Source of the DNA: Minisyncoccota bacterium
GTDB lineage: Bacteria > Patescibacteriota > Minisyncoccia > Minisyncoccales > RBG-13-42-11
Assembly: GCA_016782605.1 (NCBI GenBank)
Contig: JADHYE010000001.1
Span: 11,128 to 75,127 of the forward strand
DNA length: 64,000 nt
Direction of reading: 5' to 3'
Position 1 is the first letter of the stretch; every line of letters starts with the position of its first letter. The position numbers and the translations under genes were made by a program. Positions 5,791-59,979 of the stretch are shown here, in pieces. The notes beneath the pieces are model-generated. The model saw nothing but the letters and a program-made list of their open reading frames with translations, did no database searches and was not told the origin of the DNA.

Positions 5791-5860
5791 CTAGGTAGTA
5801 GAAATTCGACAAATTTATTTTTCTTTGCTGCCAGGCAGCAGTCGAATTTTCACTACCTGG
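5791..5860 (+). mobile_element. Family-2 miniature inverted-repeat element, copy A (flanked by CATA repeats)
   Basis: ctaggtagtagaaattcgac ... gtcgaattttcactacctgg inverted-repeat ends; its left end abuts the pcm ATG and the element overlaps the last approximately 15 codons and the stop of def. Confidence 0.75.
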
Positions 5861-6312
5861 CATAGTTTTTGTGGTAAACTCATTTTATCAATAAATAGTA
5901 TTCCGTCCAAGTGGTCAATCTCGTGCTGGAAAACCCTGGCTGACAATCCATCAACTTTCATTTTGATTTTTTCCCCCTGCAGATTAAGAAACTCCAGTTC
6001 CACTTCCTTAGCTCTTTTAATCTTTAAAAACAAACCAGGAAAACTCAAGCATCCCTCTTCCATGACTTCTGTCTTTCTGCTTTTCCGCACGATCTTTGGA
6101 TTTATGAAAACTTGCGACTTTCCTTCAAAAAAAGCAGCGATTATGCTTTTTGATTCGCCGATCTGAGAAGCAGCCAATCCAATGCCGTCTTTTTCCATCA
6201 TTATCTTTTTCATTTCTTCGGCCAATATCTTCACCTCCTCGGTTATCTCCTTGATCGCAGAAGATTTCTTTCTCAGTATTGGATTTGGATATTCTAATAT
6301 TTGCTTACTCAT
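5815..6312 (-). CDS. def: peptide deformylase
   Basis: 165 aa; motifs EGCLSFPG and HEIDHLDG; the C-terminal approximately 15 codons are encoded by the Family-2 element. Confidence 0.9.
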   Translation of the reverse strand: MSKQILEYPNPILRKKSSAIKEITEEVKILAEEMKKIMMEKDGIGLAASQIGESKSIIAAFFEGKSQVFINPKIVRKSRKTEVMEEGCLSFPGLFLKIKRAKEVELEFLNLQGEKIKMKVDGLSARVFQHEIDHLDGILFIDKMSLPQKLCQVVKIRLLPGSKEK

Positions 6313-7534
6313 GTCTTCTTAATGCATCAACTGGTTTTAATTTAGCAGCTGTCCTGGCCGGCAGAACTCCGGAAACGCAACCGATAATAAAAGAAAAAAC
6401 CAAGCCGAAAACAACCAAACCGAGGTTTACCGAAGCAGTAAAATAGAAAACAGGATGCACCTGTCCATAGAATTCAATACCTTTGGCCAGTAAGGAACCG
6501 AGCAGAGTGCCGCCTATCCCTCCAATTAAACCGACAATGCCCGCTTCAAAAAGAAATATCAAAAGGATAGCTGAGTTTTTCGCTCCAATTGCCTTCATGA
6601 TACCTATTTCTTTAGTCCTTTCTCTGACCGAAGTAAACATGCTGTTAGTAATTCCGATGCCCCCGACAATAATGGCAATGCTGGCAAAAGCAAAAATGAC
6701 CATCTGAATTATGCCCAAAATATTGCCGGCTATCGCCCCCATTTTTTCGGAAGTGATAACGGAAAAATCAGCCTCGTCGGTTCCTGACCTTCTCTTTCTT
6801 GTTTCGCTTAAGGCTTCTTCAATTTTTTGAGCCACGACATTCTCATCCACTCCGTCTTCAAGCTTAACCATGGCATAAGCAGCAGTGCCCCGCTTTTCTC
6901 CGGTAACGTCCTGGTAGACTTTCATATCCATATATACCATACTGTCGTCCTGCTTGCTGCCCAAGGAATCGAGCACTCCTGCCACCTGGAATTTTCTTCC
7001 CTTTATCGTTATTTCCGAACCGGCTTTCACTTCCTTTGAGAAAATTTCAGTGGCCACCTGGGAACCGATTAAAACTTCGTTTCCTTTGCTCGGCCACCTT
7101 CCTTCGGTCAAACTCCAGCCCTGAAAAATGCTCAAAATATCCAAACCTTCCTTCCACGGATCATAGCCGGCGATGGCTATTTGCTTTGATTCTTCCTTAA
7201 ACCTGGCAATAGCTCCGGTATAAGAAAATCCCAAAACCTTGTCTACGCCTTCTGCTTTTTTAATCGCTTCAATGTCTTCTTTCTGCAGCTTTGCGCCACC
7301 GAACATCATGGACGTAAGAAGATCTTCATCGCTGCCCGGCATAACCATAACCATTTCTCCGCCCATGGCCTGCAGCTGCTGGTTTATCGTTGATTTCAAT
7401 CCTTCTGACAGAGAAAGCAGGGAAATTATTAAAAAAACGCCAATGACAATGCCTAAAATAGTAAGAAAACTTCTCAATGACCTTGTTCTGATATTTCTGA
7501 CGGCAATATTAAAATATTCTTTTAATTCTTCCAT
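6305..7534 (-). CDS. ABC transporter permease (FtsX/MacB-type)
   Basis: 409 aa; N-terminal TM helix, large periplasmic domain, and C-terminal three-TM FtsX-like region. Confidence 0.8.
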   Translation of the reverse strand: MEELKEYFNIAVRNIRTRSLRSFLTILGIVIGVFLIISLLSLSEGLKSTINQQLQAMGGEMVMVMPGSDEDLLTSMMFGGAKLQKEDIEAIKKAEGVDKVLGFSYTGAIARFKEESKQIAIAGYDPWKEGLDILSIFQGWSLTEGRWPSKGNEVLIGSQVATEIFSKEVKAGSEITIKGRKFQVAGVLDSLGSKQDDSMVYMDMKVYQDVTGEKRGTAAYAMVKLEDGVDENVVAQKIEEALSETRKRRSGTDEADFSVITSEKMGAIAGNILGIIQMVIFAFASIAIIVGGIGITNSMFTSVRERTKEIGIMKAIGAKNSAILLIFLFEAGIVGLIGGIGGTLLGSLLAKGIEFYGQVHPVFYFTASVNLGLVVFGLVFSFIIGCVSGVLPARTAAKLKPVDALRRHE

Positions 7535-8235
7535 AAATAGTCTTTGGCAGTGGAATGGTTTTCAACTATCATGCCGTCTTCAATGTTTACTACCTGTTCG
7601 GCATAATTGGCGATCTTTGCATCATGGGTGACTACGACAACGGTCTTGCCCTCATTCTTGTGAAAATCGGTCAGCACTTCCATTATCTTTTCCCCGGTAA
7701 CAGAATCCAAATTTCCCGTCGGCTCGTCAGCGATAATCACTTCGGGATGATTGGCAAAAGCCCTGGCAATAGCCACTCTCTGGCGTTCGCCTCCGGAAAG
7801 CTCTCCTGGCCCATGGAAAATCCTATCCTCCAAATCAACGGAAACTAAAATGTCTTTTGCCCTCTTTTTTCTTTCTTCCTGGGCTATACCCTGAAAAGTC
7901 ATGGGTAGCATTACGTTTTCAATAGCTGAAAGATTAGAAAGTAAATTGAATTCCTGAAAAATAAAACCGAGTATCTTACCACGAAATTGAGCCAGTTGGC
8001 TTTCTGCCATTAAAGAAATGTCTTTGCCTTTTAAAAAAACTTTTCCCTTTGTCGGCGAATCCAAACAGCCGATAATATTTAAAAGAGTTGATTTGCCCGA
8101 GCCCGAAGACCCCATAATCGCCACAAAAGCGCCTGGAAAAATTTCCAGGCTCAATCCTCTTAAAGCGTGAACTTCTGTCTTTCCTAATTCGTAAGTTCTC
8201 CAGACATTATCCAGTTTAATAATTGGCTCTGCCAT
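7522..8235 (-). CDS. ABC transporter ATP-binding protein (MacB/LolD-like)
   Basis: 237 aa; Walker A GSSGSGKST; signature LSGGERQR; Walker B IIADEPT. Confidence 0.9.
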   Translation of the reverse strand: MAEPIIKLDNVWRTYELGKTEVHALRGLSLEIFPGAFVAIMGSSGSGKSTLLNIIGCLDSPTKGKVFLKGKDISLMAESQLAQFRGKILGFIFQEFNLLSNLSAIENVMLPMTFQGIAQEERKKRAKDILVSVDLEDRIFHGPGELSGGERQRVAIARAFANHPEVIIADEPTGNLDSVTGEKIMEVLTDFHKNEGKTVVVVTHDAKIANYAEQVVNIEDGMIVENHSTAKDYLWKN

Positions 8236-10847: not shown

Positions 10848-10915
10848 ATTGCTTATTTGCTTGCCGAGCTGCAGCAAGATAGAAGAAGAGATTTATCTCT
10901 TCGCTTCTTTGTGAA
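10848..10915 (+). repeat. Family-3 hairpin-pair element (GCTGCAGC palindrome plus GAAGAAGAGAT-TT-ATCTCTTCGC hairpin) abutting the start codon
   Basis: same two-hairpin layout as the 15138-15270 and 56365-56433 copies. Confidence 0.55.
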
Positions 10916-11021
10916 AACTAACTAAAAAGCACTTATATGAATATTATATCTAAAAAATAGATTATTACAAGCAATTTTTCTGTATTAATGTTTATTTAAT
11001 AAACACTAAAAAACCGTCTTC

Positions 11022-12690: not shown

Positions 12691-13347
12691 TTATAATTTT
12701 CCAATTGATTTGCCGTATTTTCTCCTCCAGGCTTCTATCATTTTGTGATTACCCGAAACCAAAACTTTAGGTACCCGCCATTTCTGGAAAACTTCAGGCC
12801 TGGTGTATTGCGGATATTCCATAAATCCCTTTTCCTTAGTTATCCTTTCTTTCAATAAAGCAGGTTTGCCCAAAACTCCAGGTATTAACCTTGTTATGGT
12901 TTCCATAACTATCATTCCAGGCAACTCCCCTCCCATCAAGTCGTAGTCGCCAACTGACAACTCCATATCAGCAATGTGTTTGGCTACTCTTTCATCAACC
13001 CCTTCATACCGGCCGCAAATCATAATTATCTGGTTTAATTTTGACAACTGATAAGCTGTTTTCTGATTGAATTTCTTTCCCCGGGGAGTAAATAATATGA
13101 CTTTTGTTTTGCCTTTGCCTTTTATCTTTCTAACAGCTTTATATATGGACTCTACCTTCAAAACCATACCCAGCCCTCCGCCAAAAGGCCTATCATCAAC
13201 TGTTTTGCGCTGATCTTTGGCCCAGTCCCTCAAATTATGGACATTTATCTTAATCAATTTCTTTTCCCTGGCTTTCTTAATAAAAGACTCCTTCAGATAA
13301 GAATCGAATATTTGGGGAAAGATTGTAATAATATCAAATTTAAGCAT
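12691..13347 (-). CDS. trmD: tRNA (guanine37-N1)-methyltransferase
   Basis: 218 aa; MLKFDIITIFPQ...; SPOUT-type TrmD motifs. Confidence 0.9.
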   Translation of the reverse strand: MLKFDIITIFPQIFDSYLKESFIKKAREKKLIKINVHNLRDWAKDQRKTVDDRPFGGGLGMVLKVESIYKAVRKIKGKGKTKVILFTPRGKKFNQKTAYQLSKLNQIIMICGRYEGVDERVAKHIADMELSVGDYDLMGGELPGMIVMETITRLIPGVLGKPALLKERITKEKGFMEYPQYTRPEVFQKWRVPKVLVSGNHKMIEAWRRKYGKSIGKL

Positions 13348-13348
13348 A

Positions 13349-13480
13349 CCCTGTATATCAACATCCAGGCATTTTCAATGCGAAAACACCCTGAAGATTG
13401 TCTTTATTTAATAATATATTTAACATAATAACTTTGTTTGAGATTTTAATACGAAGTATTCTGGATGTTGTATTACGGGG
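13349..13480 (+). mobile_element. Family-1 element, copy 2 (flanked by CATA repeats)
   Basis: ccctgtatatcaacatccag ... ctggatgttgtattacgggg; abuts the trmD ATG. Confidence 0.85.
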
Positions 13481-13544
13481 CATAAAAACAAAAACGGCCT
13501 ATTTTGAACAATAGCACCGTTTTTGCACTCTGTAAACTTAGAGT

Positions 13545-14447: not shown

Positions 14448-15137
14448 TTACCAATGTTTGACTGCTAAAGCGTTTTTCGCTGCCTCAACTTCTGCTTCTT
14501 GTTTTGAAGATCCTTTGCCTTCGGCCACTAAATCCTTATCAAGGAAAACGCCGATAACGAAATTCTTTGCGTGATCCGGCCCGTGTTCTTTCAAAACTTT
14601 ATAGGTCGGAGTAATGCCCACTCTTTCTTGGGCTGCTTCCTGGAAAGTGGATTTAGCATCCCTGAAAAGACCTTTCTCAATGATTTCCGGCAATTTAACG
14701 ATTAAATTCTTTTTAATGAATTTTTCGCATGCTTTATAGCCTGAATCAAGGTAAGCTGAACCGATAAACGCTTCAAAAGTGTTGGCCAGGATATAATCCC
14801 TTGATTTGCCTGTTTCTTTCATTTCTCCTTTTGAAAGAAGCAAAAAATCATTAAAGCCCAATTCCTTAGCAACCTCAGCAAGCATTTTAGCATTAACCAG
14901 AGAAGCGCGCCAGTTGGTCAATTCGCCTTCCGGCTTTTTGGGATATTTGACAAAAAGGTGTTCGGTAATAATAAGTTCCAAAACCGCATCTCCCAAAAAT
15001 TCCAGTCTTTCATTGTTATCCAGATTGGCTTTCGGATTCTCGTTCAGATAGGAGCGATGGCAAAAAGCCTGAATCAATAAATCCTTGTTTTTGAATTTAA
15101 AATTTAATTGCTTTTCCAATATTGAAAAATCATTCAT
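14448..15137 (-). CDS. rnc: ribonuclease III
   Basis: 229 aa; catalytic signature ERLEFLGDAVLEL; C-terminal dsRBD. Confidence 0.9.
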   Translation of the reverse strand: MNDFSILEKQLNFKFKNKDLLIQAFCHRSYLNENPKANLDNNERLEFLGDAVLELIITEHLFVKYPKKPEGELTNWRASLVNAKMLAEVAKELGFNDFLLLSKGEMKETGKSRDYILANTFEAFIGSAYLDSGYKACEKFIKKNLIVKLPEIIEKGLFRDAKSTFQEAAQERVGITPTYKVLKEHGPDHAKNFVIGVFLDKDLVAEGKGSSKQEAEVEAAKNALAVKHW

Positions 15138-15270
15138 ATACCGAGTCCGCCCAAGGCGGGCGAAGGTGAAGAAGAGGTTTACCTCTTCGACTTACTTTTC
15201 TAATACCGAGTCCGCCCAAGGCGGGCGAAGGTGAAGAAGAGGTTTACCTCTTCGACTTACTTTTCTAATT
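15138..15270 (+). repeat. Family-3 hairpin-pair element present as a perfect 2 x 65-bp tandem duplication filling the nusB-rnc spacer
   Basis: The unit ccgagtccgcccaaggcgggcgaaggtgaagaagaggtttacctcttcgacttacttttctaata occurs twice with 100% identity (15141-15205 and 15206-15270). It starts right after the rnc ATG, and the last four codons and stop of nusB lie in the second unit. Confidence 0.85.
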
Positions 15271-36871: not shown

Positions 36872-36872
36872 A

Positions 36873-37019: not shown

Positions 37020-37031
37020 CATTTTTTAAAA

Positions 37032-41258: not shown

Positions 41259-41789
41259 CTAAAAAGCATCCAAATCTCTAAGCGCTTTCTCATAAATGCC
41301 CAGTGCCTTTTTAGTCTCATCCAAAGTTAACTTGTAATCAGGATCGCGAACAATATTGTTGCGAATCTGGTGTGCTTCTTTTAACTCTTCGATATTGGAA
41401 AGAGTGGCGACGGTTAGCTTTTCCAAGCTCTCTTCTAAAGAAGCGCCTCCGTACCCCATCTTTTTCAAAATATCATTCATTGTATTGTCCGCTTCAATAA
41501 CCGTTAACTTGTATTCCGATTCCAAACCAGTATCTAATCTAGCAAGAATCTTCCGCCAATCCCTTTCCATTCTTTTTACGCCAAAAGGCTTGTATCTGAA
41601 GAATTCAGCTGCGTCATAAAGAACATACATTCTCAGCCAAGAAGACTTAAAAAGCGCGAAAATTATGAAGCCCACTGCAAATACGCCAAAAACCATAAAA
41701 GCTATCTTTAAATAGAAAAGCAAATCGTCAAAAGCGGCGGAAGAAAAAAACGGCATGAAACTATTTGTAAATCCTTCAATTATTTCCAT
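41259..41789 (-). CDS. hypothetical membrane protein
   Basis: 176 aa; two TM helices; the ATG is flush with Family-1 copy 4. Confidence 0.4.
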   Translation of the reverse strand: MEIIEGFTNSFMPFFSSAAFDDLLFYLKIAFMVFGVFAVGFIIFALFKSSWLRMYVLYDAAEFFRYKPFGVKRMERDWRKILARLDTGLESEYKLTVIEADNTMNDILKKMGYGGASLEESLEKLTVATLSNIEELKEAHQIRNNIVRDPDYKLTLDETKKALGIYEKALRDLDAF

Positions 41790-41790
41790 A

Positions 41791-41922
41791 CCCCGTATAT
41801 CAACATCCAGGCATTTTCAATGCGAAAACACCCTGAAGATTGTCTTTATTTAATAATATATTCAACATAATAACTTTGTTTGAGATTTTAATACGAAGTA
41901 TTCTGGATGTTGTATTACAAGG
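41791..41922 (+). mobile_element. Family-1 element, copy 4 (flanked by CATA; variant right end ..ttacaagg)
   Basis: its terminal 8 bp supply the last codon and TAA stop of gatA. Confidence 0.85.
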
Positions 41923-43345
41923 CATATAATTTTGATATTTCTAAAATTTTATCTTCTTCGAACGGCTTGCCGATTATCTGAAGTCCGACAGGAAGATTGT
42001 CTATCTTACCGACAGGCAAGGAAACAGCCGGCAATCCAGCCAAACTGACAGGACCGGTAAAAACATCGCAAAGATACATTTGAAGCGGGTCTTTAATCTT
42101 TTCTCCGAGCTTGAAAGCCGGAGTCGGCGCAACGGGTGTCATTAAAACGTCTACCTTTTTAAACGCCTTTTCAAAATCCTGTCTTACCAAAGTCCTTACT
42201 TTCTGGGCTTTCAAATAATAAGCGTCGTAATAACCGCTGGACAAAGCATATGTTCCCAAAATAATCCTGCGGCGTACCTCGTCTCCCAATCCCCTGCCCC
42301 TTGAACGCAAATAAACTTCCATTAAATCATTACTGCTTTTGTCCTGGTGTCCGTATTTTATGCCATCGTATCTTGCCAAATTAGCAGAAATCTCACAAGG
42401 CATAATTATGTAATAAGTAGCTATAGCGTAATCAGTATGAGGTAAACTTACTTCCATTATCTTTGCGCCCATTGCCTCGTATTTCTTTATCGCCTCTTTC
42501 ACTATTTTTTCCACTTCCTTATCAACTTCTTTGACAAAATATTCTTTGGGAACGCCTATTTTCAAGCCCTTGATTTTCAATCCATTGTTTTCAACCCTCA
42601 TATCAACCGAAGTTGAATCCATCTGATCTTTGCCCCTTATTACATCAAAAACAATCTTGCAGTCATCTATATTCTTGGTTAAAGGCCCTATCTGGTCAAG
42701 AGAAGAAGCCATAGCAATCAGTCCGAAGCGGGAAACTGCGCCGTAAGTCGGCCTTAACCCGACCACTCCGCAAAGAGAAGCAGGGTAACGTATCGAACCA
42801 GCTGTATCAGAACCCAAAGCGTAAACTGCCATGTCTGCGGCAACAGCAGCTGCTGAACCAGATGAAGAGCCGCCTGTTACCCTGGTTAAATCGCAAGGAT
42901 TCTTTGTCGGACCGAAGGCTGAATTCTCTCCGGAAGCTCCCATGGCAAACTCATCCAAATTGGTTTTTCCCAAAATAACCGCCTTTTCCTTTTTCAATTT
43001 CCTGACAACCGTAGCCTCATAAAGAGCAACGTAGTTTTCTAAAATCTTTGAAGCAGCCGTACACTTCAACCCTTCAACCATAATATTGTCTTTTACAGCG
43101 CAAGGAATGCCTGCCAGAACCGGTATGTTCTCGCCTCTCTTGATTATATCATCAACTTCTTCTGCTTGCTTTAAAGCTGTTTCCTCGATAACGGACAAAA
43201 AAGCAAAAATGTCTTTGTCTTTTTCCCTTATCTTTTCCAGATAAGCTTTGCACAATTCAACAGATGAGAACTCTTTGTTGACTAATCCTTGATGCGCCTG
43301 AGCAATGGTTAGATCCTGTATCTTCACCCCGTTAGAAGTTTGCAT
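41915..43345 (-). CDS. gatA: Glu-tRNA(Gln) amidotransferase subunit A
   Basis: Amidase signature is present. The first 6 codons (MQTSNG) fall inside the left inverted-repeat end of the element at 43327-43455, and the last codon plus stop fall inside Family-1 copy 4. Confidence 0.9.
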   Translation of the reverse strand: MQTSNGVKIQDLTIAQAHQGLVNKEFSSVELCKAYLEKIREKDKDIFAFLSVIEETALKQAEEVDDIIKRGENIPVLAGIPCAVKDNIMVEGLKCTAASKILENYVALYEATVVRKLKKEKAVILGKTNLDEFAMGASGENSAFGPTKNPCDLTRVTGGSSSGSAAAVAADMAVYALGSDTAGSIRYPASLCGVVGLRPTYGAVSRFGLIAMASSLDQIGPLTKNIDDCKIVFDVIRGKDQMDSTSVDMRVENNGLKIKGLKIGVPKEYFVKEVDKEVEKIVKEAIKKYEAMGAKIMEVSLPHTDYAIATYYIIMPCEISANLARYDGIKYGHQDKSSNDLMEVYLRSRGRGLGDEVRRRIILGTYALSSGYYDAYYLKAQKVRTLVRQDFEKAFKKVDVLMTPVAPTPAFKLGEKIKDPLQMYLCDVFTGPVSLAGLPAVSLPVGKIDNLPVGLQIIGKPFEEDKILEISKLYAL

Positions 43346-46035: not shown

Positions 46036-47112
46036 TTAAAATAATCTGGCAACGTCTTTTATCGTCACCAAAACCATTAATAAAAGTAATAAACTGAAAA
46101 ATACAGCTGTTATGTTCTGCTCCACTTTTTCGCTAATCGGCCTTCTCCTGATAGCTTCAATCCCCAGAAATAATATCTTGCCTCCGTCAACTGCTGGAAT
46201 GGGCAGAATATTGAAAATAGCGATATAAATGGCCACTATGCCGACAAATTGCAGAAAATAATTCGTTCCCATCTGGCTAGCCTGAGTAAAAAGATGAACG
46301 ACCCCTACCGGACCCATCAGTTCAACTCCCGAAGACTGGCCTTGAACAATATTGCTTATCACTTGGCCGTAACCTTTAATTATTGCTCCTGTCATATTAA
46401 CCGTTGCCACCAATCCCTGCCAAGGAGCCTGGTACCAGGAAAAAGACTGCATTGCTGTTCTGACTAAAGCTACGCCCAAAGGACCTTCTCCTGCTGGCGG
46501 CGAAACTCGAGGTACGACTTTGACGTCAAAAACTTCATTCCCCCTTTCAACCGTCAAAACAATCTCTTCTCCTAAATGAGTATTACTGAACTCCTGCACT
46601 TCCCGTATTTTACCAACAGCCAATTGCTCCTCGCTAATTGCCATTCCTTTTATCGTATCCCCAGGTTGTAAGCCAGCAAGTTTTGCCGGAGAGCCAGCAG
46701 AAATGCTAGCAATCTGCACTCTTGGATTAACTAAACCAGAAGCTTCATCGTCTACAGCCACTGCTGTTCCTAAATTGAAAACAATAGCAAATAGAATTGC
46801 TGCCACTATCCAAAAAGAAAGCACTCCGGCAAAAGCAATTAAAGCCCTTTTCCAGACAGCCTGACCTGAAAAACTGCGAGGGTCATTTACCTGACCTATT
46901 TCGCCCGGCATTTTTACGAAAGCACCTAGGGGCAGAAGATTTAAAGAATAAATAGTATCGCCAATTTTTTTTCCGAATATCCTGGGAGGGAAACCTATGC
47001 CAAATTCTTCAACTTTTACTCCGAATTTCTTTGCTACGATAAAATGGCCGAATTCGTGAAGAGTTACTAGCCCTATTAAGCTTAAAGAAGCGATAAGAAT
47101 TGTTAAAAACAT
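46036..47112 (-). CDS. rseP: site-2 protease RseP (M50 family)
   Basis: HEFGHFIVAKKFGV HExxH motif, PDZ segment, multi-TM. Confidence 0.8.
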   Translation of the reverse strand: MFLTILIASLSLIGLVTLHEFGHFIVAKKFGVKVEEFGIGFPPRIFGKKIGDTIYSLNLLPLGAFVKMPGEIGQVNDPRSFSGQAVWKRALIAFAGVLSFWIVAAILFAIVFNLGTAVAVDDEASGLVNPRVQIASISAGSPAKLAGLQPGDTIKGMAISEEQLAVGKIREVQEFSNTHLGEEIVLTVERGNEVFDVKVVPRVSPPAGEGPLGVALVRTAMQSFSWYQAPWQGLVATVNMTGAIIKGYGQVISNIVQGQSSGVELMGPVGVVHLFTQASQMGTNYFLQFVGIVAIYIAIFNILPIPAVDGGKILFLGIEAIRRRPISEKVEQNITAVFFSLLLLLMVLVTIKDVARLF

Positions 47113-47113
47113 A

Positions 47114-47245
47114 CCCTGTATATCAACATCCAGGCATTTTCAATGCGAAAACACCCTGAAGATTGTCTTTATTTAATAATATATTTAACATAATAACTTT
47201 GTTTGAGATTTTAATACGAAGTATTCTGGATGTTGTATCACGGGG
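47114..47245 (+). mobile_element. Family-1 element, copy 5 (flanked by CATA)
   Basis: abuts the rseP ATG and fills the frr-rseP spacer. Confidence 0.85.
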
Positions 47246-47249
47246 CATA

Positions 47250-47810
47250 TTATTCTGATATTTCTTTTTTCTTATTCTCTCCCATTTCTTCTATCTTTTT
47301 ATTGTAATCGTCAACCAACTCCTGAAGCTCGTCTTTAGCCCGGAACTTGTCATCCTCCCTGATTTCTCCCTGTTTTGTTTTATCCTGGATTTCACTCCAA
47401 ACCTCTTCCCTCCACTTTCTAATAGTCCTTCTTGACTGTTCTTCTTTTTCCGCAATGGTCCTGGTTAAATTCTTCCTGTATTCTTCGTTCAAAGGCGGCA
47501 AATTAATCCTGACTGCATCCTTGTCAACAATTGGATTAGCGCCGATTCCCGTCTTTTCCAAAGCTGAAACAATGCCTTCGATATAAGACTTATCCCAAGG
47601 CTGAATTAAAATCTGCTTTGCCTCAGGTGTAGAAATGGCAGCCAATTGTTTTAAAGGAAACTTCTGGCCGAAACAGTCAACAACAACATCCTCCACCAAA
47701 GAAGGCGTTGCCCTGCTGGTACGAATCTTATTCATTTCCTTTTCTAAAAAGCCGATTACCTTGTCTAATTCCGGTTTAATATTTTGAATGATTGTTTTGT
47801 AGCTATCCAT
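47250..47810 (-). CDS. frr: ribosome recycling factor
   Basis: 186 aa RRF-like. Confidence 0.9.
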   Translation of the reverse strand: MDSYKTIIQNIKPELDKVIGFLEKEMNKIRTSRATPSLVEDVVVDCFGQKFPLKQLAAISTPEAKQILIQPWDKSYIEGIVSALEKTGIGANPIVDKDAVRINLPPLNEEYRKNLTRTIAEKEEQSRRTIRKWREEVWSEIQDKTKQGEIREDDKFRAKDELQELVDDYNKKIEEMGENKKKEISE

Positions 47811-47811
47811 A

Positions 47812-47943
47812 CCCTGTGTATCAACATCCAGGCATTTTCAATGCGAAAACATCCTGAAGATTGTTTTTATTTAATAATATATTTAACATAATAACTTTGT
47901 TTGAGATTTTAATACGAAGTATTCTGGATGTTGTATTACGGGG
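47812..47943 (+). mobile_element. Family-1 element, copy 6 (flanked by CATA)
   Basis: abuts the frr ATG and fills the holB-frr spacer. Confidence 0.85.
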
Positions 47944-47951
47944 CATAAAAA

Positions 47952-48842
47952 TTACATTTCCATTACCAGTCTTTCCAGAGCCAATCTGGCGTTAACATTG
48001 GTCTGGGCAAGCAGTAATTTTGTCGTTTGAATTAGATTAATAATATTTTTTAATTTATCAGCTGAATAACTTTTAAAGCTAATATCGGAATTGCCAGAAG
48101 AAAAACGGGCAAGCAGAATGTCCCTGAAATAATTAAGCCAGACATCCAGGGTTTTTTGCGTTTCTATCGGCTCTTCGCTCAAATCTTTTACGTACTGGAA
48201 ACGGGAATAAAGCATTGATTTTGAAAGATTTTTAACTTCTTCTATTTTTTTCTTGAACGCTCCAACCGCTTTTTTATCGGAAACGAAATCCATAACCAGT
48301 CCCGGTTTCCCAGAAGAAATGGAAGAAAGCTCTTCTGCCTCTTTTTTCAAAAACCCTTTGTCTAATAGATAGCGATTGATTTCTTCTTCTTTGACCGGAT
48401 TAAACTTTACAACCTGAACGCGGGAAAGAATGGTCGGTAAAAGATAATGTATTTTGTCGCTGATTAAGATTAAAACGCTGTCACCCCTCGGCTCTTCCAA
48501 TGTTTTTAAAAGCGCTGTCTGTGCCTCCTGATTCATTAAGTGGGCATTATCTATAACAGCTGCTTTCACCGAATTAAAAGAGCTTTTAAGCGAAAATCTG
48601 CGAATCAAATCCCTTATCTGGGAAATCTTTATCTCTTTTTCCTCAGGCGTAACAAGAACAAAATCTGGATGATTGCCAAAATCCTTACTGACTTTATCGC
48701 CAAAAAGCAGCGAAACCCATTGTAAAGCCAAAGTCCTTTTCCCTAATTTTTCGGAACCGGCAAATAAATAAGCGTGGGAAAAAGTCTTAGTCTCAGCCAA
48801 TTTTTTCAAAAGATTCCATTGTTTTTGGTGTCCGACCAACAT
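47952..48842 (-). CDS. holB: DNA polymerase III delta-prime subunit
   Basis: 296 aa; AAA+ clamp-loader N-terminus HAYLFAGSEKLGKRTLA. Confidence 0.65.
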   Translation of the reverse strand: MLVGHQKQWNLLKKLAETKTFSHAYLFAGSEKLGKRTLALQWVSLLFGDKVSKDFGNHPDFVLVTPEEKEIKISQIRDLIRRFSLKSSFNSVKAAVIDNAHLMNQEAQTALLKTLEEPRGDSVLILISDKIHYLLPTILSRVQVVKFNPVKEEEINRYLLDKGFLKKEAEELSSISSGKPGLVMDFVSDKKAVGAFKKKIEEVKNLSKSMLYSRFQYVKDLSEEPIETQKTLDVWLNYFRDILLARFSSGNSDISFKSYSADKLKNIINLIQTTKLLLAQTNVNARLALERLVMEM

Positions 48843-51893: not shown

Positions 51894-52192
51894 CTCGGCA
51901 CCTCCTTTCTTTATTTCTTATCTTTCGTTAATATATTAATCAAATCCTTACCTTGCAGGATATAATATGAATTCAACCTCCATCTCTCTTCTCTGCTCCT
52001 CACCATATATATCAACCCATATTGGACATAAAATGAACCACCGCTCCCCTCCTTCTACAATCACATATATTACCACGCTCTTTCCAAAATGTCAACCCCA
52101 TTAGAAGTCCGCCTTGCCGGAGGCATGGCGACAGCCACCAAGGGGGCAGCTTACTTCTAACGGAGTCAAGATTGAGGTATAATAATCATATG

Positions 52193-52264
52193 CCAGGTAG
52201 TGAAAATTCAACCACTGCCGCGGCAGTGAAAAAAATAATAATTTGTCGAATTTCTACTACCTAG
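52193..52264 (-). mobile_element. Family-2 element, copy C, inverted relative to copies A and B and abutting a plus-strand gene (flanked by TATG)
   Basis: ccaggtagtgaaaattcaac cactgccgcggcagtg ... tcgaatttctactacctag; the ATG at 52266. Confidence 0.75.
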
Positions 52265-52265
52265 T

Positions 52266-53570
52266 ATGACCAAAAAGACAAAAACAATACTGTTTTTAGC
52301 CTGCTTACTTGCATTCATCCTGTTAGCTCCCTCAATAGTCCTGTACTCCCAAGGATACAGAATTGATTTTAATCCTCCAGAAGGCGGAAAAATGATTACC
52401 CAAACCGGAGGCCTTTTTTTGAAAGTCACGCCCAAACAAACAGATATTTATATTGACGGCAAACCTAAAAAAAGAACTGATTTTCTATTCGGTTCTGTTT
52501 TAATTGAAAACCTCATTCCTGGAAAGTACAAAGTAGAAATCAAAAAATTAACCAGCCAGGAAGAATACTATCCCTGGGAGAAAAACCTGGAAATACGGGA
52601 AAAACAGGTAACTGAAGCCAAGAACGTTGTCCTTTTCCCGAAAAACGTTAATTTCAACGTCTTATCAACCAACGTAGAACAGCTTTGGCTTTCTCTGGAC
52701 CAAAAGAAACTAATCTTAAAGGAAAATGAAAAAGCCAGCTGGTCCTTAAAGCTTTACGACCCGGAAAAGAATATAAAAAGCTATTTAATAAGCGACGAGG
52801 ATTTCTTCACGAAAGAACCCCAATTAATCAATCTGAAATTCTCGGGAGACTCAAGAAGTATTAATCTGGAAGTCAGCATAAAAGAAGCAATACAATCTTT
52901 TTCTCTGCAACTTGACCAAGCAAAACCAACTTTAAATAAAAAAACAGCAGCCACAACGACAACTGGAAACGCTGCTATCTCGCAACAAGCAGGCAATGAT
53001 ATATATTATCTGGACAGTTTCGGCTATCTTTTCAGGAATAAAGAAAAGCTGGCAGAAACTCCCTTTCAAACAAAACAAGAAACAGAATATGCTTTAGATA
53101 TTTTCAACGGCAACATATTCTTAAAAGAAAACGACAAACTGTACAAATTCAATTACAATCTGAAAACATTTGAACATTTCTTTGACGGAATCAATATCTT
53201 AAAGCTTTCTCCGGACAATAAAAAACTGCTTTACGCTTCAAACAATGAAATGTGGATTCTTTTCCTGGAAGACAAAATCGACCAGCCGCAGAAAAAATCA
53301 GGAGAGAAAATCTTTTTAATCCGCTTATCAGACCAAATCACAAGCATCTCCTGGATAAACGACAATTACCTGGCTTTTCTTGCCGGCAATACCGTTAAAA
53401 TCATTGAAATAGACGACAGGGACAGAATAAACGTTATAGACATCTTTGAAACAAAAAACCTCCCTCAAGAAGGAAGCATTAATGAAATGTCCTGGAACAG
53501 GTTTGACAATAAAATCTATCTCTTGGACGAAAACGGCTATTTATATAGCTCTAACGTCCTGCTCCCGTAA
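52266..53570 (+). CDS. hypothetical secreted or anchored protein (N-terminal TM, PEGA-like segment, beta-rich C-terminal region)
   Basis: 434 aa; no family recognised. Confidence 0.4.
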   Translation: MTKKTKTILFLACLLAFILLAPSIVLYSQGYRIDFNPPEGGKMITQTGGLFLKVTPKQTDIYIDGKPKKRTDFLFGSVLIENLIPGKYKVEIKKLTSQEEYYPWEKNLEIREKQVTEAKNVVLFPKNVNFNVLSTNVEQLWLSLDQKKLILKENEKASWSLKLYDPEKNIKSYLISDEDFFTKEPQLINLKFSGDSRSINLEVSIKEAIQSFSLQLDQAKPTLNKKTAATTTTGNAAISQQAGNDIYYLDSFGYLFRNKEKLAETPFQTKQETEYALDIFNGNIFLKENDKLYKFNYNLKTFEHFFDGINILKLSPDNKKLLYASNNEMWILFLEDKIDQPQKKSGEKIFLIRLSDQITSISWINDNYLAFLAGNTVKIIEIDDRDRINVIDIFETKNLPQEGSINEMSWNRFDNKIYLLDENGYLYSSNVLLP

Positions 53571-54269: not shown

Positions 54270-54739
54270 TGAGGAGCACGACGAGCGCGCTTCAATCCGA
54301 ACTTCTTTCTTTCCCTCATCCTCGGGTCTCTTTTCAAAAAACCAGCTTTTTTCAACTGTTTCCTCAATTCTGGATCGAATAAAACTAAAGCGCGAGTTAA
54401 ACCGTGCCTGACAGCTTCAGCCTGGGAAGTCGTCCCTCCCCCTTTAACTTTTACTGAAACCTGAAATTTGTCAGAATAATCAGTCAAAATCAAAGGAGAA
54501 AAAATAATACGCTGAAGGTATTTTGTCGGAAAATAATTTTCAAAAGTCCTTGTATTTATTAAAAAGGTCTTTTCTTTTTGAACAGAAATTCTCACCCTGG
54601 CTACAGCTGTCTTTCTCCTGCCTATGCCCTCAAAATACCTGGCTACTTTAGGTTTAACTGTTACTTTGGCAGTTTTTTTAGCTGGAGCTTTTTTGACTTT
54701 CTTTACTGTTTCTTTTTTTGTTTTTTTAGCCTTTGGCAT
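54254..54739 (-). CDS. rpsI: 30S ribosomal protein S9 with lysine-rich N-terminal extension
   Basis: C-terminal GGGTTSQAEAVRHGL..KKFGLKRARRAPQWQKR; start taken at MPKAKK; the track's MDVDIRG extension is derived from the repeat element. Confidence 0.9.
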   Translation of the reverse strand: MPKAKKTKKETVKKVKKAPAKKTAKVTVKPKVARYFEGIGRRKTAVARVRISVQKEKTFLINTRTFENYFPTKYLQRIIFSPLILTDYSDKFQVSVKVKGGGTTSQAEAVRHGLTRALVLFDPELRKQLKKAGFLKRDPRMRERKKFGLKRARRAPQWQKR

Positions 54740-54740
54740 A

Positions 54741-54872
54741 CCCCGTATATCAACATCCAAGCATTTTCAATGCGAAAACACTCTGAAGGCTGTTTTTATT
54801 TAATAATATATTCAACATAATAACTTTGTTTGATATTTTAATACGAAGTATTCTGGATGTTGTATTACAGGG
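54741..54872 (+). mobile_element. Family-1 element, copy 7 (flanked by CATA; variant right end ..ttacaggg)
   Basis: abuts the rpsI ATG; its last 8 bp supply the final codon and TAA stop of rplM. Confidence 0.85.
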
Positions 54873-55215
54873 CATATTTTAATCTTTTAATCATTTTTGC
54901 TCTTAATTTATTCTTGGGCAGCATGCCAAAAACCGCTTTCCTCAAAACTTCTTCCGGATTCTTCTCAAATAACTTCTCCAAAGTTATCTCCTTCAAGCTT
55001 CCCAGATATCCAGAATGACGGTAGTATTTCTTCTGTTTGGCTTTTTTGCCGGTGAATTTCAACTTATCAACGTTTTGGACAATAACAACATCGCCGATAT
55101 CTTTGTACGGCGCAAAGTCTGCTTTCTGTTTCCCCCTCAAAAGCAAAGCTATTTCAACAGCCAGTCTGCCTAAAACCTTATCAGTAGCGTCTATTTTGTG
55201 GGTTTTGCGTTCCAT
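54865..55215 (-). CDS. rplM: 50S ribosomal protein L13
   Basis: 116 aa L13-like. Confidence 0.85.
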   Translation of the reverse strand: MERKTHKIDATDKVLGRLAVEIALLLRGKQKADFAPYKDIGDVVIVQNVDKLKFTGKKAKQKKYYRHSGYLGSLKEITLEKLFEKNPEEVLRKAVFGMLPKNKLRAKMIKRLKYAL

Positions 55216-56433: not shown

Positions 56434-57052
56434 AAAACTCGAAAATTGCGGAGAGTTCTGCCGGTGGGACAGCCTCTTCTAAATTTGGTGAATCGATGAC
56501 CTTTGCCTCCAGCTTCTCAGCGTCTAATTTGAGCCAAGACGGAGGATTATATTTTTTTAAAGTAGATGATAATTTCTGGAAAATTGTTTTTTTTAAAGAA
56601 TTGGGGTTAACGCTTATTTTGTCCCCTTTCTTAACCAGATAGCTGGAAATATTAATCGGCCTGTCGTTAACCATAAGATGGCTGTGGGAAACCATTTGTC
56701 TGGCAGCAAATTTGGAAGGAGCGAAACCTAATCTGAAAACTACATTGTCCAAGCGGCTCTCCAAAGTTTTAATTAAAGCAGCGCCGGCATCCGTCACCTT
56801 TCCCCTGGCCTTTAAAATATCTTTGACGTAGTTCCTGAATTGCTTCTCTTCCAAATTATACCAGTTCTTTAATTTTTGTTTTTCCCTTAATTCTTTACCG
56901 TATTCAGAAAGCGATTTCACTCTTTTTTTAGCTTTTGGCCCTGGCGGATAAGGTTTTTTGATCATTGGGCATTTCTGCGATGAGCACCTTTCGCCTCTCA
57001 AAAAAAGCTTAATTCCTGCACGACGGCAAATTTTGCATTTAGAAACATTCAT
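56423..57052 (-). CDS. rpsD: 30S ribosomal protein S4
   Basis: 209 aa; N-terminal zinc ribbon CKICRR..C..C; S4 domain. Confidence 0.9.
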   Translation of the reverse strand: MNVSKCKICRRAGIKLFLRGERCSSQKCPMIKKPYPPGPKAKKRVKSLSEYGKELREKQKLKNWYNLEEKQFRNYVKDILKARGKVTDAGAALIKTLESRLDNVVFRLGFAPSKFAARQMVSHSHLMVNDRPINISSYLVKKGDKISVNPNSLKKTIFQKLSSTLKKYNPPSWLKLDAEKLEAKVIDSPNLEEAVPPAELSAIFEFYSK

Positions 57053-57053
57053 A

Positions 57054-57185
57054 CCCTGTATATCAACATCCAGGCATTTTCAATGCGAAAATATCCTGAA
57101 GGCTGTCTTTATTTAATAATATATTTAACATAATAACTTTGTTTGATATTTTAATACGAAGTATTCTGGATGTTGTATTACAAGG
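57054..57185 (+). mobile_element. Family-1 element, copy 8 (flanked by CATA; right end ..ttacaagg)
   Basis: abuts the rpsD ATG and fills the rpsK-rpsD spacer. Confidence 0.85.
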
Positions 57186-57192
57186 CATAAGT

Positions 57193-57642
57193 TTATACCC
57201 TTCTTACTTTTGGCTTACGACAGCCGTTATGCGGAACTGGAGTCATATCCTTAATTGAAACTATTTCCAAACCCCTGGCAGCCAATGACCTAATAGCTGA
57301 ATCTCTGCCAGAACCTATCCCCTTTACGAAAATCTCTATCTTTTCAATCCCTATTTTCTCGGCAATCTGGACGATTGCTTCAGCTACCTTGGAAGCAGCA
57401 AAAGGCGTTGCTTTTTTTGCTCCTTTGAAACCGATATTGCCAGCGCTAGTCCAGCCCAAAACATTACCCTTTGGATCTGTCAAAGTAAGGATGGTGTTGT
57501 TATAAGAAGAAGCAATGTAAATTCTGCCCTCTTGTATCCTTTTAAGGGTTTCTTTGGCCTGCTCTTTCACTTTCGTTTCCATGGCTTCACCTTCTTTCAA
57601 AATCTCTTCTTCAGTTTGTCGTATAACACGTTTTTTACCCAT
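57193..57642 (-). CDS. rpsK: 30S ribosomal protein S11
   Basis: 149 aa S11-like. Confidence 0.9.
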   Translation of the reverse strand: MGKKRVIRQTEEEILKEGEAMETKVKEQAKETLKRIQEGRIYIASSYNNTILTLTDPKGNVLGWTSAGNIGFKGAKKATPFAASKVAEAIVQIAEKIGIEKIEIFVKGIGSGRDSAIRSLAARGLEIVSIKDMTPVPHNGCRKPKVRRV

Positions 57643-57794
57643 AATGGTAATACCTAATTAGGTCGCGGCACGTCCCACTTGCAGCGGGACTAACACCGCT
57701 CTTTAAAAACCCTCGGTTTTTAATATTTTCCTACACGGAAGAACCAAAGGGTTCTTCCGACCCATCTCCGATATGGGACGTTATTACTGAATTA
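57643..57794 (-). promoter_or_regulatory. rpsK leader sharing hairpin modules with the rplK and rplJ leaders
   Basis: 57721-57790 matches 33820-33870; 57691-57705 (taacaccgctcttta) matches the rplJ leader; the approximately 30 nt before the ATG are shared. Confidence 0.5.
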
Positions 57795-58189: not shown

Positions 58190-58306
58190 TTATCCTTGAC
58201 GCTGCTTATGTTTGGGATTTTTTTTGCAAATAACATAAATTCGTCCTGATCTTCGGACGATTTTACAGTCTTTGCAAATTTTCTTGACCGATGGACGTAC
58301 TTTCAT
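58190..58306 (-). CDS. rpmJ: 50S ribosomal protein L36, missed by the ORF track (38 aa)
   Basis: translates [38 protein letters not shown]. Confidence 0.8.
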
Positions 58307-58339
58307 AATAAAAAAACAATAATGACTTATTGCGCGAAA

Positions 58340-58555: not shown

Positions 58556-58603
58556 TAAATAGGCAATTTTTTAGTTTATCAGAAATTAGTTATTTGGTCA
58601 ATG

Positions 58604-59905
58604 CTAATCAATGACCAGATTGAATTTAATCTTACTTAGGTCTTCTGGCACCTTATTGACCCAGAATGGCCAAAACTTGACGCTGGCCCTGGTAATCTTA
58701 GGATAGTTTTCCAAGAAGAGCTTAGCCTCGAGCAAAGACTTTCCTTTTAAGGCGTTTTTAAAGCTGAAAATGTCAACGTCAGCATAGATTTTAGCTGAAA
58801 TTGTCAAAGAAACAGCAATTTTGCCGGTCTCTAAATCAACATCGTCAATAGAATAATTTATTTTCAAACTTTCCTCATAAAGCTTTTTATCCTGGGGAAT
58901 TTGAAAAGTAATCGCTTCTTTAACGTAATTCCTAATATCTTCTTTCTTAAACACTACGACTTGGCATTGCGCTTTCACCTGATAATTAAAGTCTTTTGCT
59001 TCTGTTTCAGCAGAAGTCAAAGAAAAGTTCTCAATAATTTCTGTCTGGATGCTGTCTGGCAAATAATCGAACTTGGAAGAAATCGCTTCTGACTGCAGTT
59101 CTTTCTGCAGCAGTTCATTGCATTCTTTCTCCGCTTGTTTTGTTAAAGTTTCTTCAGCTTGAGATAAATCCTTTTCTGTCACTTTAGCAATTTCTTCATG
59201 GAAGCCGCCTGCCATTGCTTCAAAAGATTCGCCGTAGAATTTAGTATACCTGTCTGTGCCGGCAAATCCCGGTACGGAGAACTTGGTCAAAGCGATATTG
59301 TATTCTTCGCCAGGCTGATCTGCCACCACTTTTACATCTATTTCTCCTGGAACAAGCTTTCCTTTCTCATAAGTACCTCCAGGAACAGTAACTTTGATTG
59401 GCGTGCGGAATACCTTTCCGTCAGCTGAAACAAAACGGGTAGTGGCTATTAAAACCTGCTGCGAAGTTGAATAGGCATTGTACACTTTTATTGTGCCTTG
59501 CGCCTTCTCCTCTTTCATAATTTTACCGGAAGCCGGAAAAGTCTGAACAATGGTTTTTTCTTTCTGAAGCGTTTCTGCCGGAATAATCTTTAAAAGAGAA
59601 TCAATAGCTGTTGCGTTTTTGTCGATATTCGTTTCTTCTATAAGATTAAAAACTTCTGTCTCCGGCCAAACGCTTATTTCAGCTTTAGACAAAGCAATGT
59701 AGCAAAACGCTCCCAATAAAACCAAAAAAAGCAAAGAAAAAGTCAAACCCTTTTTAAAGGGTGGATTAGGAGCTTTTTTAGGAAAACCCCACAAAGGAAC
59801 CTTGGGCTTTTGCTCTAGTTCTATCTTTACTTCTGGCTCTTTGTGCTCCTCCTTTTTTTTCTCTTTTTTCGAAGGAGGGAAAACGTCTATTACTTTTTTG
59901 CTCAT
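58604..59905 (-). CDS. hypothetical protein with Lys-rich N-terminus and one TM helix
   Basis: 433 aa; no family recognised; the ATG is flush with Family-2 copy B. Confidence 0.4.
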   Translation of the reverse strand: MSKKVIDVFPPSKKEKKKEEHKEPEVKIELEQKPKVPLWGFPKKAPNPPFKKGLTFSLLFLVLLGAFCYIALSKAEISVWPETEVFNLIEETNIDKNATAIDSLLKIIPAETLQKEKTIVQTFPASGKIMKEEKAQGTIKVYNAYSTSQQVLIATTRFVSADGKVFRTPIKVTVPGGTYEKGKLVPGEIDVKVVADQPGEEYNIALTKFSVPGFAGTDRYTKFYGESFEAMAGGFHEEIAKVTEKDLSQAEETLTKQAEKECNELLQKELQSEAISSKFDYLPDSIQTEIIENFSLTSAETEAKDFNYQVKAQCQVVVFKKEDIRNYVKEAITFQIPQDKKLYEESLKINYSIDDVDLETGKIAVSLTISAKIYADVDIFSFKNALKGKSLLEAKLFLENYPKITRASVKFWPFWVNKVPEDLSKIKFNLVID

Positions 59906-59906
59906 A

Positions 59907-59979
59907 CCAGGTAGTAGAAATTCGACTAATTAAACATTATTATCACTGCCGCGGTAGTGGTCGAATTTTCACTACCTGG
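59907..59979 (+). mobile_element. Family-2 element, copy B (flanked by CATA)
   Basis: ccaggtagtagaaattcgac .. cactgccgcggtagtg .. gtcgaattttcactacctgg. Confidence 0.75.

Follow-up and report, generated by a model that had tools for sequence, protein, structure and literature searches.

The DNA considered here, hereafter the window, is a stretch of 64,000 nucleotides from a Minisyncoccota bacterium (GCA_016782605.1, contig JADHYE010000001.1, positions 11,128 to 75,127), and it carries three copies of a short inverted-repeat element which we refer to as Family 2. The copies, in order A, C and B, are 70, 72 and 73 bp in length (Table 1) and each directly adjoins the ATG of a long open reading frame (ORF). 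These are ORF 5154-5789 on the minus strand, the product of which belongs to the PCMT family (pcm), for copy A, ORF 52266-53570 on the plus strand for copy C, and ORF 58604-59905 on the minus strand for copy B. Searching the window for CCAGGTAGTGAAAATTCGAC with up to three mismatches gave exactly six matches, the two ends of the three elements, a number reached in none of 100 shuffled windows (shuffle mean 0.01). The three copies and the inverted-repeat ends described in an earlier sequence-only reading of this DNA are thus confirmed. The terminal inverted repeats are 20 bp long and are distinguished by a conserved internal swap of two nucleotides (GTGAAAA versus GTAGAAA), so that the two ends of the element can be told apart.

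The flanks, previously listed as CATA, CATA and TATG for copies A, B and C, are on both sides of every copy one and the same 4-bp duplication; in the reading direction of the adjacent gene it is TATG. Copy C had been called inverted, an effect only of its gene lying on the plus strand; relative to the host gene the orientation of all three copies is identical. In gene sense they share the layout TATG; CCAGGTAGTGAAAATTC(G/A)AC; 15-16 nt forming a GC-rich hairpin; filler of 15-17 nt, rich in A/T; GTCGAATTTCTACTACCT(A/G)G; TATG. On either strand each copy is predicted to fold, over its whole length, as one long hairpin (z-score -6.8 to -8.5). The reading frames opened by the flanking ATG extend for 18-31 codons at the longest and there is no transposase ORF. 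Rfam at gathering score matched six tRNAs in the window and nothing in Family 2, while inspection of the three copies for an outward promoter or terminator gave only weak consensus matches and one terminator-like call on the antisense strand. Copies B and C are each preceded by a TATAAT box at a distance of 6 nt from the A of the upstream ATG, which is the geometry of a leaderless gene start; we infer that the box upstream of copy C may be the leaderless-type promoter context of the host gene, now split from that gene by the element.

At copy A the upstream gene is also affected. The def ORF (5815-6312, minus strand) enters the element (5815-5864) and terminates at a TAA within it (5817..5815), its C-terminal residues therefore being element-encoded; without copy A the frame would stop some 20 nt inside pcm.

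Orthologues of ORF 58604-59905 with 93, 77 and 69% protein identity possess a single ATG and no element at the site of copy B. Copy B is missing from the orthologous loci L206-L215, each of which has a single ATG, and the contigs concerned retain the neighbouring genes, with an alanyl-tRNA-synthetase-like gene upstream and infA and rpsM downstream. The element-free sites read ...GTGTATAAT(G/A)TTAT(T/A)T-ATG or, at more length, ...AATAGTGTATAAT(G/A)TTAT(T/A)T ATG AGC/GCC..., where the window has ...GTGTATAATATTAT TATG (73 bp) TATG AGC.... Since the orthologous site has a single (T)ATG and no element, the flank is a true 4-bp target duplication and the copies are true insertions. Look-ups of the exact proteins of pcm and ORF 58604-59905 returned the same strain only, with the elements present, empty sites being found only in more distant orthologues; the same look-up with ORF 52266-53570 returned no record. 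Contigs of the same strain from other samples (L202-L205) all carry elements and tend to end in a repeat of Family 1, the second repeat family of the window. In other genomes copies of about 70 bp are nested within the repeat of other copies, with TTTT/AAAA duplications and with the intact relatives as empty sites; tandem arrays occur in which the copies have one TATG in common, and some copies lie inside coding regions or at the 3' ends of genes. The suggestion that this is a mobile element is upheld by the empty orthologous site and by these nested insertions. The Family 2 copies in the window are MITEs (miniature transposable elements with inverted repeats): they are small, well below about 600 bp, have terminal inverted repeats, a fixed-length duplication and an empty site, and there is a coding element with the same ends. 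As a MITE the feature is familiar in form.

A scan for the repeat through one genome per species gave at least 120 loci, mostly in metagenome-assembled genomes (MAGs) of Patescibacteria. About 70 matches would be expected by chance over the whole genome collection, and lone matches in unrelated phyla agree with this figure. Among the matches listed, paired repeats were located in Patescibacteria MAGs (Parcubacteria, Portnoy-, Yanofsky-, Lipton- and Nealsonbacteria) and TATG/TATG flanks were present in 38 of 66 copies, the remainder mostly having one degenerate flank. At least 102 distinct elements could be extracted, falling into size classes of about 67-80, about 112-155 and 306-323 bp. Non-redundant sites ending in ATG numbered 83 over all loci, 77 of them not followed by another element, and at 68 of these 77 an ORF of at least 50 codons opens at the downstream duplicated ATG. 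These sites support the insertion flush on the start codon that was first noticed in the window.

The sequence-only reading had described the family by the GC-rich core CACTGCCGCGGCAGTG and had taken the core of copy A, TGCTGCCTGGCAGCA, as a degenerate form of it. Neither view survives comparison, since TGCTGCCTGGCAGCA is the commoner variant in other genomes (among the matches listed) and what is conserved is a GC-rich hairpin beside the upstream repeat, constant in place and variable in sequence. MITEs of about 130 bp (L022, L018, L065, L089, L115 and others) contain internal partial copies of both repeat halves, ...TATCTGG... and ...AGAAATTCGA..., which suggests that this class arose from fused or nested short MITEs, or that local hairpins are present at each end.

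The copies of 306-323 bp encode an ORF of 86-91 codons which matches the Pfam GIY-YIG family (PF01541; E values 3e-13 to 2e-17, scores 50-63 bits against a curated cut-off of 22.6). One such full-length copy (L089) shares the MAG LBYG01 with at least 17 MITE loci. A metagenome search with four nuclease proteins gave more than 526 relatives; at the best 80 loci, which were analysed, both Family 2 repeats surround the nuclease ORF in 67, the element measuring 307-366 bp with mostly TATG/TATG flanks. Its anatomy is spare, with a typical length of about 307-330 bp: a 20-bp repeat, 7 nt, the ORF, a second 20-bp repeat and nothing else. Of 54 distinct elements, 46 have the ATG of the ORF 7 nt past the left repeat, 48 keep the ORF in frame with the flanking ATG and free of a stop in between, and 41 have a stop codon which lies 19-20 nt from the right end and touches the right repeat. 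Nuclease ORF and host gene always run in the same direction, and the host ATG follows 13-24 nt after the nuclease stop or overlaps it as ATGA. Packed so tightly between the repeats, the ORF leaves no space for a promoter or ribosome-binding site. In databases many gene calls, of 97-103 residues, begin at the flanking ATG, and their N-terminus, MPGSENST..., is translated repeat.

Of the catalytic residues of the GIY-YIG motif, Y14, Y16, R37 and H41 (P0001 numbering) are invariant among 116 homologues of the nuclease, and Y27, G29 and E61 are found in at least 90% of them. The median ratio of nonsynonymous to synonymous substitution rates (dN/dS) is 0.105, with dS near saturation, which indicates that the protein is under purifying selection. 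By sequence as by predicted fold its closest relatives of solved structure are BH0048 and EF2693, both UPF0213 proteins, and the structure-specific nuclease SLX1; an AlphaFold2 model (predicted local distance difference test score, pLDDT, 84) has the GIY-YIG alpha/beta fold and gave as its top Foldseek matches 1zg2, SLX1 (7cq4, 4xm5, 6seh) and 1ywl. The nuclease is present in more than 2,000 clusters at 90% identity. A profile search returned 14,736 representatives at 50% identity (E <= 1e-3), so that the clade of the elements makes up a single branch within a very large family, that of the minimal stand-alone GIY-YIG proteins. Slx1-family proteins from prokaryotes have been described as minimal stand-alone GIY-YIG domains and treated as ordinary genes (PMC1564403). 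At L059 (5720-6120) the 5' half of a tRNA-Met(CAT) gene is present twice, and a small GIY-YIG ORF of a different kind stands between the two copies; the first copy breaks off directly behind CTCATA in the anticodon loop, where CATA is TATG in reverse complement.

Family 1 is represented in the window by eight copies, seven of about 171 bp and one variant (36867-37029), with the ends CCCCGTAATACAACATCCAG / CTGGATGTTGATATACRGGG. Its layout, TATG, CCCCGTAATACAACATCCAG ... CTGGATGTTGATATACAGGG, TATG-gene, matches that of Family 2, as the sequence-only reading had observed; the flanks are mostly TATG on both sides (the 5017 copy excepted) and every copy sits in one and the same direction on or beside an ATG. 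Among the matches to the nuclease profile some have N-termini which are translations of other repeats. A coding counterpart precedes pheS at L218 (340-650) and reads TATG, CCCAGTAATACAACTTCCAG, ORF, CTGGAAGTTGATATACTGGG, TATG. Its repeats agree with those of Family 1 in the window at 18 of 20 positions at both ends, and the ORF specifies a GIY-YIG nuclease (P0284, N-terminus MPSNTTS), lacks an in-frame ATG of its own and has its stop inside the right repeat, as has the similar L219. L220 bears a third type of repeat, and there the end of the ORF overlaps the host start as ATGA. The Family 2 nuclease and P0284 share 52% identity, and the terminal repeats of the two families agree at 11 of 20 positions. 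The two families can thus no longer be called unrelated. Nor is the idea of one mobilising enzyme for both supported, for each family has its own nuclease-coding version; these would be two sister enzymes with cognate ends. The presence of three diverged repeat lineages, each with its own GIY-YIG variant, points to co-divergence of ends and nuclease. Nor do the families simply co-occur, Family 1 ends being almost absent from about 200 loci rich in Family 2. At L138 (640-730) a type IV pilin-like gene contains, between KGF and TLIEM, a Family-1-like MITE of about 80 bp (CCCCGTATATCATTTTCCAG...CTGGAAGTTGTATTACGGGG) which has a TTTA duplication; the start codon of this same gene carries a full-length Family 2 element.

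Insertion is strongly directional. In full-length copies the downstream flank, read on the ORF strand, ends in a start codon (ATG, once GTG) or is TGGA in 56 of 57 cases and is TACG in one, the reverse complements CATA and TCCA occurring in 0 of 57. MITEs were oriented by the non-palindromic duplication only; the GC hairpin is then on the upstream side in 45 and gene-proximal in 7, with 10 ties (p = 7e-8), a bias which argues that direction, at least, was set at insertion or strongly selected. The 4-mer itself varies. CGTG, CATG, AATG, TGGA, TTTT and TATA are all faithfully duplicated, and from a case like CGTG/CGTG, on a GTG start, it is clear that the 4-mer is derived from the target and is not borne by the element. 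The association with TATG starts holds for the majority of copies; a minority depart from it, having TATA, TTTT, CAA or CTC flanks or TGGA at gene 3' ends, and this is relaxed or variant target choice rather than absence of a rule. Target follows lineage, in that elements with CCAGG ends are found with TATG (60 of 85) and those with CCGGG ends with TGGA. The TGGA insertions fall without exception among the final codons of a conserved host gene (...DFSIM.Y.W TG*), whose original C-terminus and stop are restored by the repeat (CC GGG TAG). At most of the loci L140, L164, L165, L180, L189, L191, L192 and L196-L198 a close, repeat-free GIY-YIG homologue is found just after the DFSIM.Y.WTG* gene end, sometimes preceded by a TATAAT box (L189 and L191, for example) and often with a MITE at TGGA; these homologues may be immobile resident copies.

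Within the window the 11 insertions of Families 1 and 2 are without exception at start-codon TATGs, and 11 of about 66 gene starts are thereby occupied. Random choice among some 82 TATG sites outside gene bodies, 47 of them at starts, would give this result with a probability of about 0.002; the roughly 35 non-start sites in this figure were estimated by discounting element-derived sites from 59 counted. T precedes the first ATG of 47 of the 66 predicted genes (71%, where composition would lead one to expect about 30%). Since the background is already so high, this T is no evidence of specificity and targeting of TATG is inseparable, on sequence alone, from association with start codons. The bias may belong to the host, with the elements taking advantage of it, or may be a mark left by their long residence. 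The one further target signal seen is a modest excess of CC behind the ATG at insertion sites (12 of 77 versus 4 of 66, p = 0.002).

Taken together we consider it rather probable that the Family 2 copies are MITE derivatives of a tiny element of Patescibacteria, the Candidate Phyla Radiation (CPR), the sole gene of which is a GIY-YIG nuclease. The nuclease is probably also the mobilising enzyme, to judge from linkage, frame, orientation and purifying selection. With somewhat less assurance we lean to the view that these elements constitute a new class of prokaryotic DNA transposon, of about 310 bp, having as sole protein an SLX1-like GIY-YIG nuclease of about 88 residues translated from the start signals of the host. 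The sequence-only reading had looked towards a transposase with a TATG signature; the candidate enzyme is no classical transposase, the window does not encode it, and GIY-YIG enzymes lie outside the known transposase classes (DDE, DEDD, HUH, serine, tyrosine, Cas1). To our knowledge there is no precedent for an inverted-repeat element with a GIY-YIG nuclease as its only gene which captures start codons, and in a search of the open-access full-text literature neither inverted-repeat elements of bacteria with a GIY-YIG gene nor start-codon MITEs of the CPR were described.

Insertion takes place with a 4-bp duplication, overwhelmingly at (T)ATG starts and in one orientation. The layout of the coding form is such that the upstream ATG, with the promoter and ribosome-binding signals of the host, is read through the repeat into the nuclease ORF, and the downstream copy of the ATG restores the start of the host gene. 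In copies such as those of the window the ORF would have been replaced by the GC hairpin and A/T-rich filler, and a nuclease gene elsewhere in the genome, present now or in the past, would move them in trans. As regards chemistry we can offer only a tentative scheme, which we think possible rather than likely. The nuclease would cut both junctions and the target with a 4-nt stagger, the resulting overhangs being sealed by host ligase or repair functions, and precise excision would be allowed. The stagger would leave non-palindromic TATG/CATA overhangs, and their rejoining by the host is proposed to account for both the duplication and the fixed orientation.

Several points weigh against the nuclease in this role. 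We know of no GIY-YIG enzyme which forms a covalent intermediate or transfers strands, and for this reason rejoining has to be left to the host; that an 88-residue GIY-YIG domain might recognise the repeats, cut both ends and promote integration is a supposition. A tblastn search with six nucleases revealed no GIY-YIG gene in the window, the sole match being a repeat-encoded peptide. The interiors of most MITEs are unrelated to the nuclease ORF, so that an origin by simple deletion is shown for a few copies only (L009, L070). Nor does the scheme account for expression of a host gene behind a MITE; there is no convincing outward promoter and the stops are unfit for translational coupling: MITE-borne upstream ORFs do not tend to stop near the host ATG, the median stop lying about 70 nt upstream and being no better placed than in other frames. 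Furthermore the TATG-at-start pattern could be largely a survival filter and not enzyme specificity; preference of the enzyme and survival of harmless insertions cannot be separated.

The main alternative is that a hidden DDE insertion sequence (IS), for example of the IS5-, IS701- or IS1380-like kind, mobilises MITEs and nuclease versions alike in trans, the nuclease being cargo as in mobile insertion cassettes. We think this unlikely, although it has to be taken seriously. Inverted repeats with a fixed-length duplication are the classical DDE signature, IS1380-family ends begin with CC and are accompanied by duplications of 4-5 bp, and the unlikeness of most MITE interiors to the nuclease ORF also speaks for it. 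IS copies are often lost from MAGs in assembly, and an element with these ends that is longer, less frequent and equipped with a DDE transposase could lie beyond the at least 120 repeat loci and more than 526 nuclease relatives listed. On the other hand no longer element with these ends and a conventional transposase was present among repeat pairs 400-4000 bp apart and lone repeats at the first 120 loci, all of which proved to be MITEs with one degenerate end, neighbouring MITEs or chance matches in unrelated phyla, and no other transposase was seen between or beside these ends at about 280 repeat matches in the about 220 loci listed. The hidden-IS reading is further opposed by the distinct nuclease variant in each of three repeat lineages (Family 2, the Family 1 type of L218/L219, and L220), by the nucleotide-exact fit of the ORF between the ends (the 7-nt spacer, the frame of the flanking ATG, the stop abutting or inside the right repeat), and by the strong purifying selection on the nuclease and its presence in so many clusters; strict orientation relative to a non-palindromic duplication is unexpected from DDE chemistry.

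A homing-type trigger, in which the nuclease cuts the empty (T)ATG and host repair copies in the element through 4-nt microhomology without excision of the donor, would suit an enzyme class known for its homing endonucleases, the high copy numbers, and targets which modestly resemble the left junction (CC after the ATG; in the TGGA subfamily, downstream bases CCGGA and CAGGC resembling the repeat start CCGGG). We find it improbable, as homing requires long flanking homology, which is absent between unrelated loci, templated repair over 4 nt is inefficient, and the strong conservation of the 20-bp inverted repeats is left unexplained. Dozens of unrelated host genes are occupied, with repeats and duplications, where a homing gene would have a single long cognate target. 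Very improbable, in our opinion, is a single-strand peel-and-paste process of the IS200/IS605 or IS91 kind, with insertion 3' of a particular tetranucleotide in one orientation, a right-hand TATG owned by the element and a duplication that is only apparent. Orientation-specific insertion by a 4-nt motif, the whole-element hairpin on either strand and lineage-dependent targets, reminiscent of guide-based recognition, would fit; yet variant flanks occur in duplicate, one on each side, the ends are genuine terminal inverted repeats instead of separate subterminal hairpins, and GIY-YIG is the only ORF between them, with no Y1/HUH transposase or TnpB. Finally, that the repeats are not mobile at all, and represent a regulatory hairpin (5' leader, translational operator or terminator) shared by descent or convergence, is scarcely credible. 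Their place just upstream of an ATG, a strong predicted fold which sequesters the start codon region, and a GC hairpin with a T-rich tract resembling a terminator on the antisense strand are what one would expect of such a device; it is contradicted by presence and absence at an orthologous site with an exact 4-bp duplication, and by the nested and tandem copies, the copies inside coding regions and at gene 3' ends, the coding versions and the lack of an Rfam match.

Table 1. Positions of Family 2 features and other repeats in the window, with related loci elsewhere (L numbers). The six terminal inverted repeats are the six matches to the CCAGGTAGTGAAAATTCGAC pattern.
Feature	Position	Strand	Remarks
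Copy A, element	5791-5860	-	70 bp
Copy A, gene-proximal TATG	5787-5790	-	opens ORF 5154-5789 (PCMT/pcm) at ATG 5789..5787
Copy A, gene-proximal terminal inverted repeat	5791-5810	-	GTCGAATTTCTACTACCTAG in gene sense
Copy A, GC-rich hairpin beside upstream repeat	5826-5840	-	TGCTGCCTGGCAGCA
Copy A, upstream terminal inverted repeat	5841-5860	-	CCAGGTAGTGAAAATTCGAC in gene sense; 0 mismatches
Copy A, upstream TATG duplication	5861-5864	-	
Copy C, element	52193-52264	+	72 bp
TATAAT, -10-like box	52178-52183	+	6 nt before A of copy C upstream TATG; read from sequence
Copy C, upstream TATG duplication	52189-52192	+	
Copy C, upstream terminal inverted repeat	52193-52212	+	CCAGGTAGTGAAAATTCAAC
Copy C, GC-rich palindrome/hairpin	52213-52228	+	CACTGCCGCGGCAGTG; terminator-like flag on antisense strand
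Copy C, gene-proximal terminal inverted repeat	52245-52264	+	GTCGAATTTCTACTACCTAG
Copy C, gene-proximal TATG	52265-52268	+	ATG 52266-52268 starts ORF 52266-53570 (434 aa)
Copy B, element	59907-59979	-	73 bp
Copy B, gene-proximal TATG	59903-59906	-	ATG starts ORF 58604-59905 (433 aa)
Copy B, gene-proximal terminal inverted repeat	59907-59926	-	
Copy B, GC-rich hairpin	59944-59959	-	CACTACCGCGGCAGTG in gene sense
Copy B, upstream terminal inverted repeat	59960-59979	-	0 mismatches
Copy B, upstream TATG	59980-59983	-	single (T)ATG in element-free orthologous loci
TATAAT, -10-like box	59989-59994	-	6 nt upstream of A of copy B upstream ATG; kept in empty orthologous sites
Family 1, eight copies	5017-5187, 13345-13515, 36867-37029, 41787-41957, 47110-47280, 47808-47978, 54737-54907, 57050-57220		
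Third repeated block, about 150-300 nt	3576-3740, 33564-33870, 57631-57790; L216 1340-1503		
AAGAGATTTATCTCTT-type palindromes in short repeats	15133-15262, 364-409, 10883-10928, 3670-3693, 63878-63901		65-bp tandem duplication at 15133-15262
TGGA-site loci of CCGGG-ended subfamily	L127, L146, L148, L175, L177, L188, L193		

A third repeated block of the window contains several hairpins and ends in ...GCCGCGA(C/T)(C/T)TAATTA(G/A)GTATTACCA(C/T)T just before the ATG of three genes. The gene behind one copy (57193-57642) resembles S11, and at L216 the block is situated at the ATG which in the window carries Family 2 copy B. We have left it out as a further family member, there being no consistent inverted repeats or duplication and no Rfam match; it could be a structured leader or another mobile family. 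The AAGAGATTTATCTCTT-type palindromes of the short repeats look like terminator-type hairpins of several intergenic regions.

Should the nuclease indeed mobilise these elements, it would represent a new catalytic class of DNA transposition and would lower the size limit to about 310 bp and a single protein of 88 residues, making them the smallest autonomous mobile elements known. Part of the large uncharacterised family of stand-alone GIY-YIG proteins (UPF0213/YhbQ-like) would also acquire a function. The elements show a parasitic strategy of which we know no earlier description, insertion on a start codon, where the ORF inherits the transcription and translation signals of the host and the duplication regenerates the host start. 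The annotation of CPR/Patescibacteria genomes is affected as well: about one in six gene starts of the window is occupied, and broken assemblies, false N-terminal extensions and altered C-termini (as in def) result. A very small nuclease which cuts a defined junction with a 4-nt stagger, if confirmed, might be of practical interest.

Among known systems Family 2 resembles the Correia/NEMIS elements of Neisseria and RUP of Streptococcus pneumoniae, which are also non-coding repeats of about 70-150 bp with inverted repeats, a short duplication, many gene-adjacent copies and a transcript forming a long hairpin. Those elements duplicate TA and have ties to DDE transposases (IS630-like for RUP), whereas Family 2 duplicates 4 bp, usually TATG, sits on the start codon in one orientation and shares its ends with an element encoding only a GIY-YIG protein. 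The mobile insertion cassettes of Bacillus cereus similarly place a non-transposase gene between inverted repeats; they share their ends with the mobilising IS231, while no such IS was found here and the gene carried is a nuclease fitted exactly between the ends. The short intergenic mycobacterial interspersed repetitive units are alike in having small ORFs which overlap the neighbouring stop and start codons and use the translation signals of the host; they are units of tandem repeats, have neither inverted repeats nor target duplications, and no master copy among them is coding.

In its minimal single-domain architecture and fold the nuclease resembles the stand-alone SLX1/UPF0213 proteins (COG2827, YhbQ-type), the best matches in the PDB being 1zg2 and 1ywl and then SLX1. 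These are treated as cellular genes of unknown or repair function, whereas the element clade is bounded by repeats and duplications at many unrelated loci. The GIY-YIG homing endonucleases (I-TevI, the Seg proteins) offer the parallel of a selfish entity with a nuclease as its only gene and site-preferential insertion. Unlike the element, with its protein of about 88 residues and hundreds of different gene starts, they have a large DNA-binding domain and long recognition sites, depend upon homologous repair into one cognate site, and are associated with no repeats, duplications or MITEs. IS200/IS605 elements and their palindrome-associated derivatives are also very small, are inserted in fixed orientation beside a motif of 4-5 nt, have hairpin ends and give rise to abundant non-autonomous forms; they differ in employing a Y1 HUH transposase with a covalent intermediate and in lacking both target duplication and terminal inverted repeats. 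Like piggyBac, which inserts at TTAA, Family 2 has a specific 4-bp target which is duplicated and could permit precise excision. PiggyBac is eukaryotic, kilobases long and moved by a DDE transposase, and because its target is palindromic its orientation is random.

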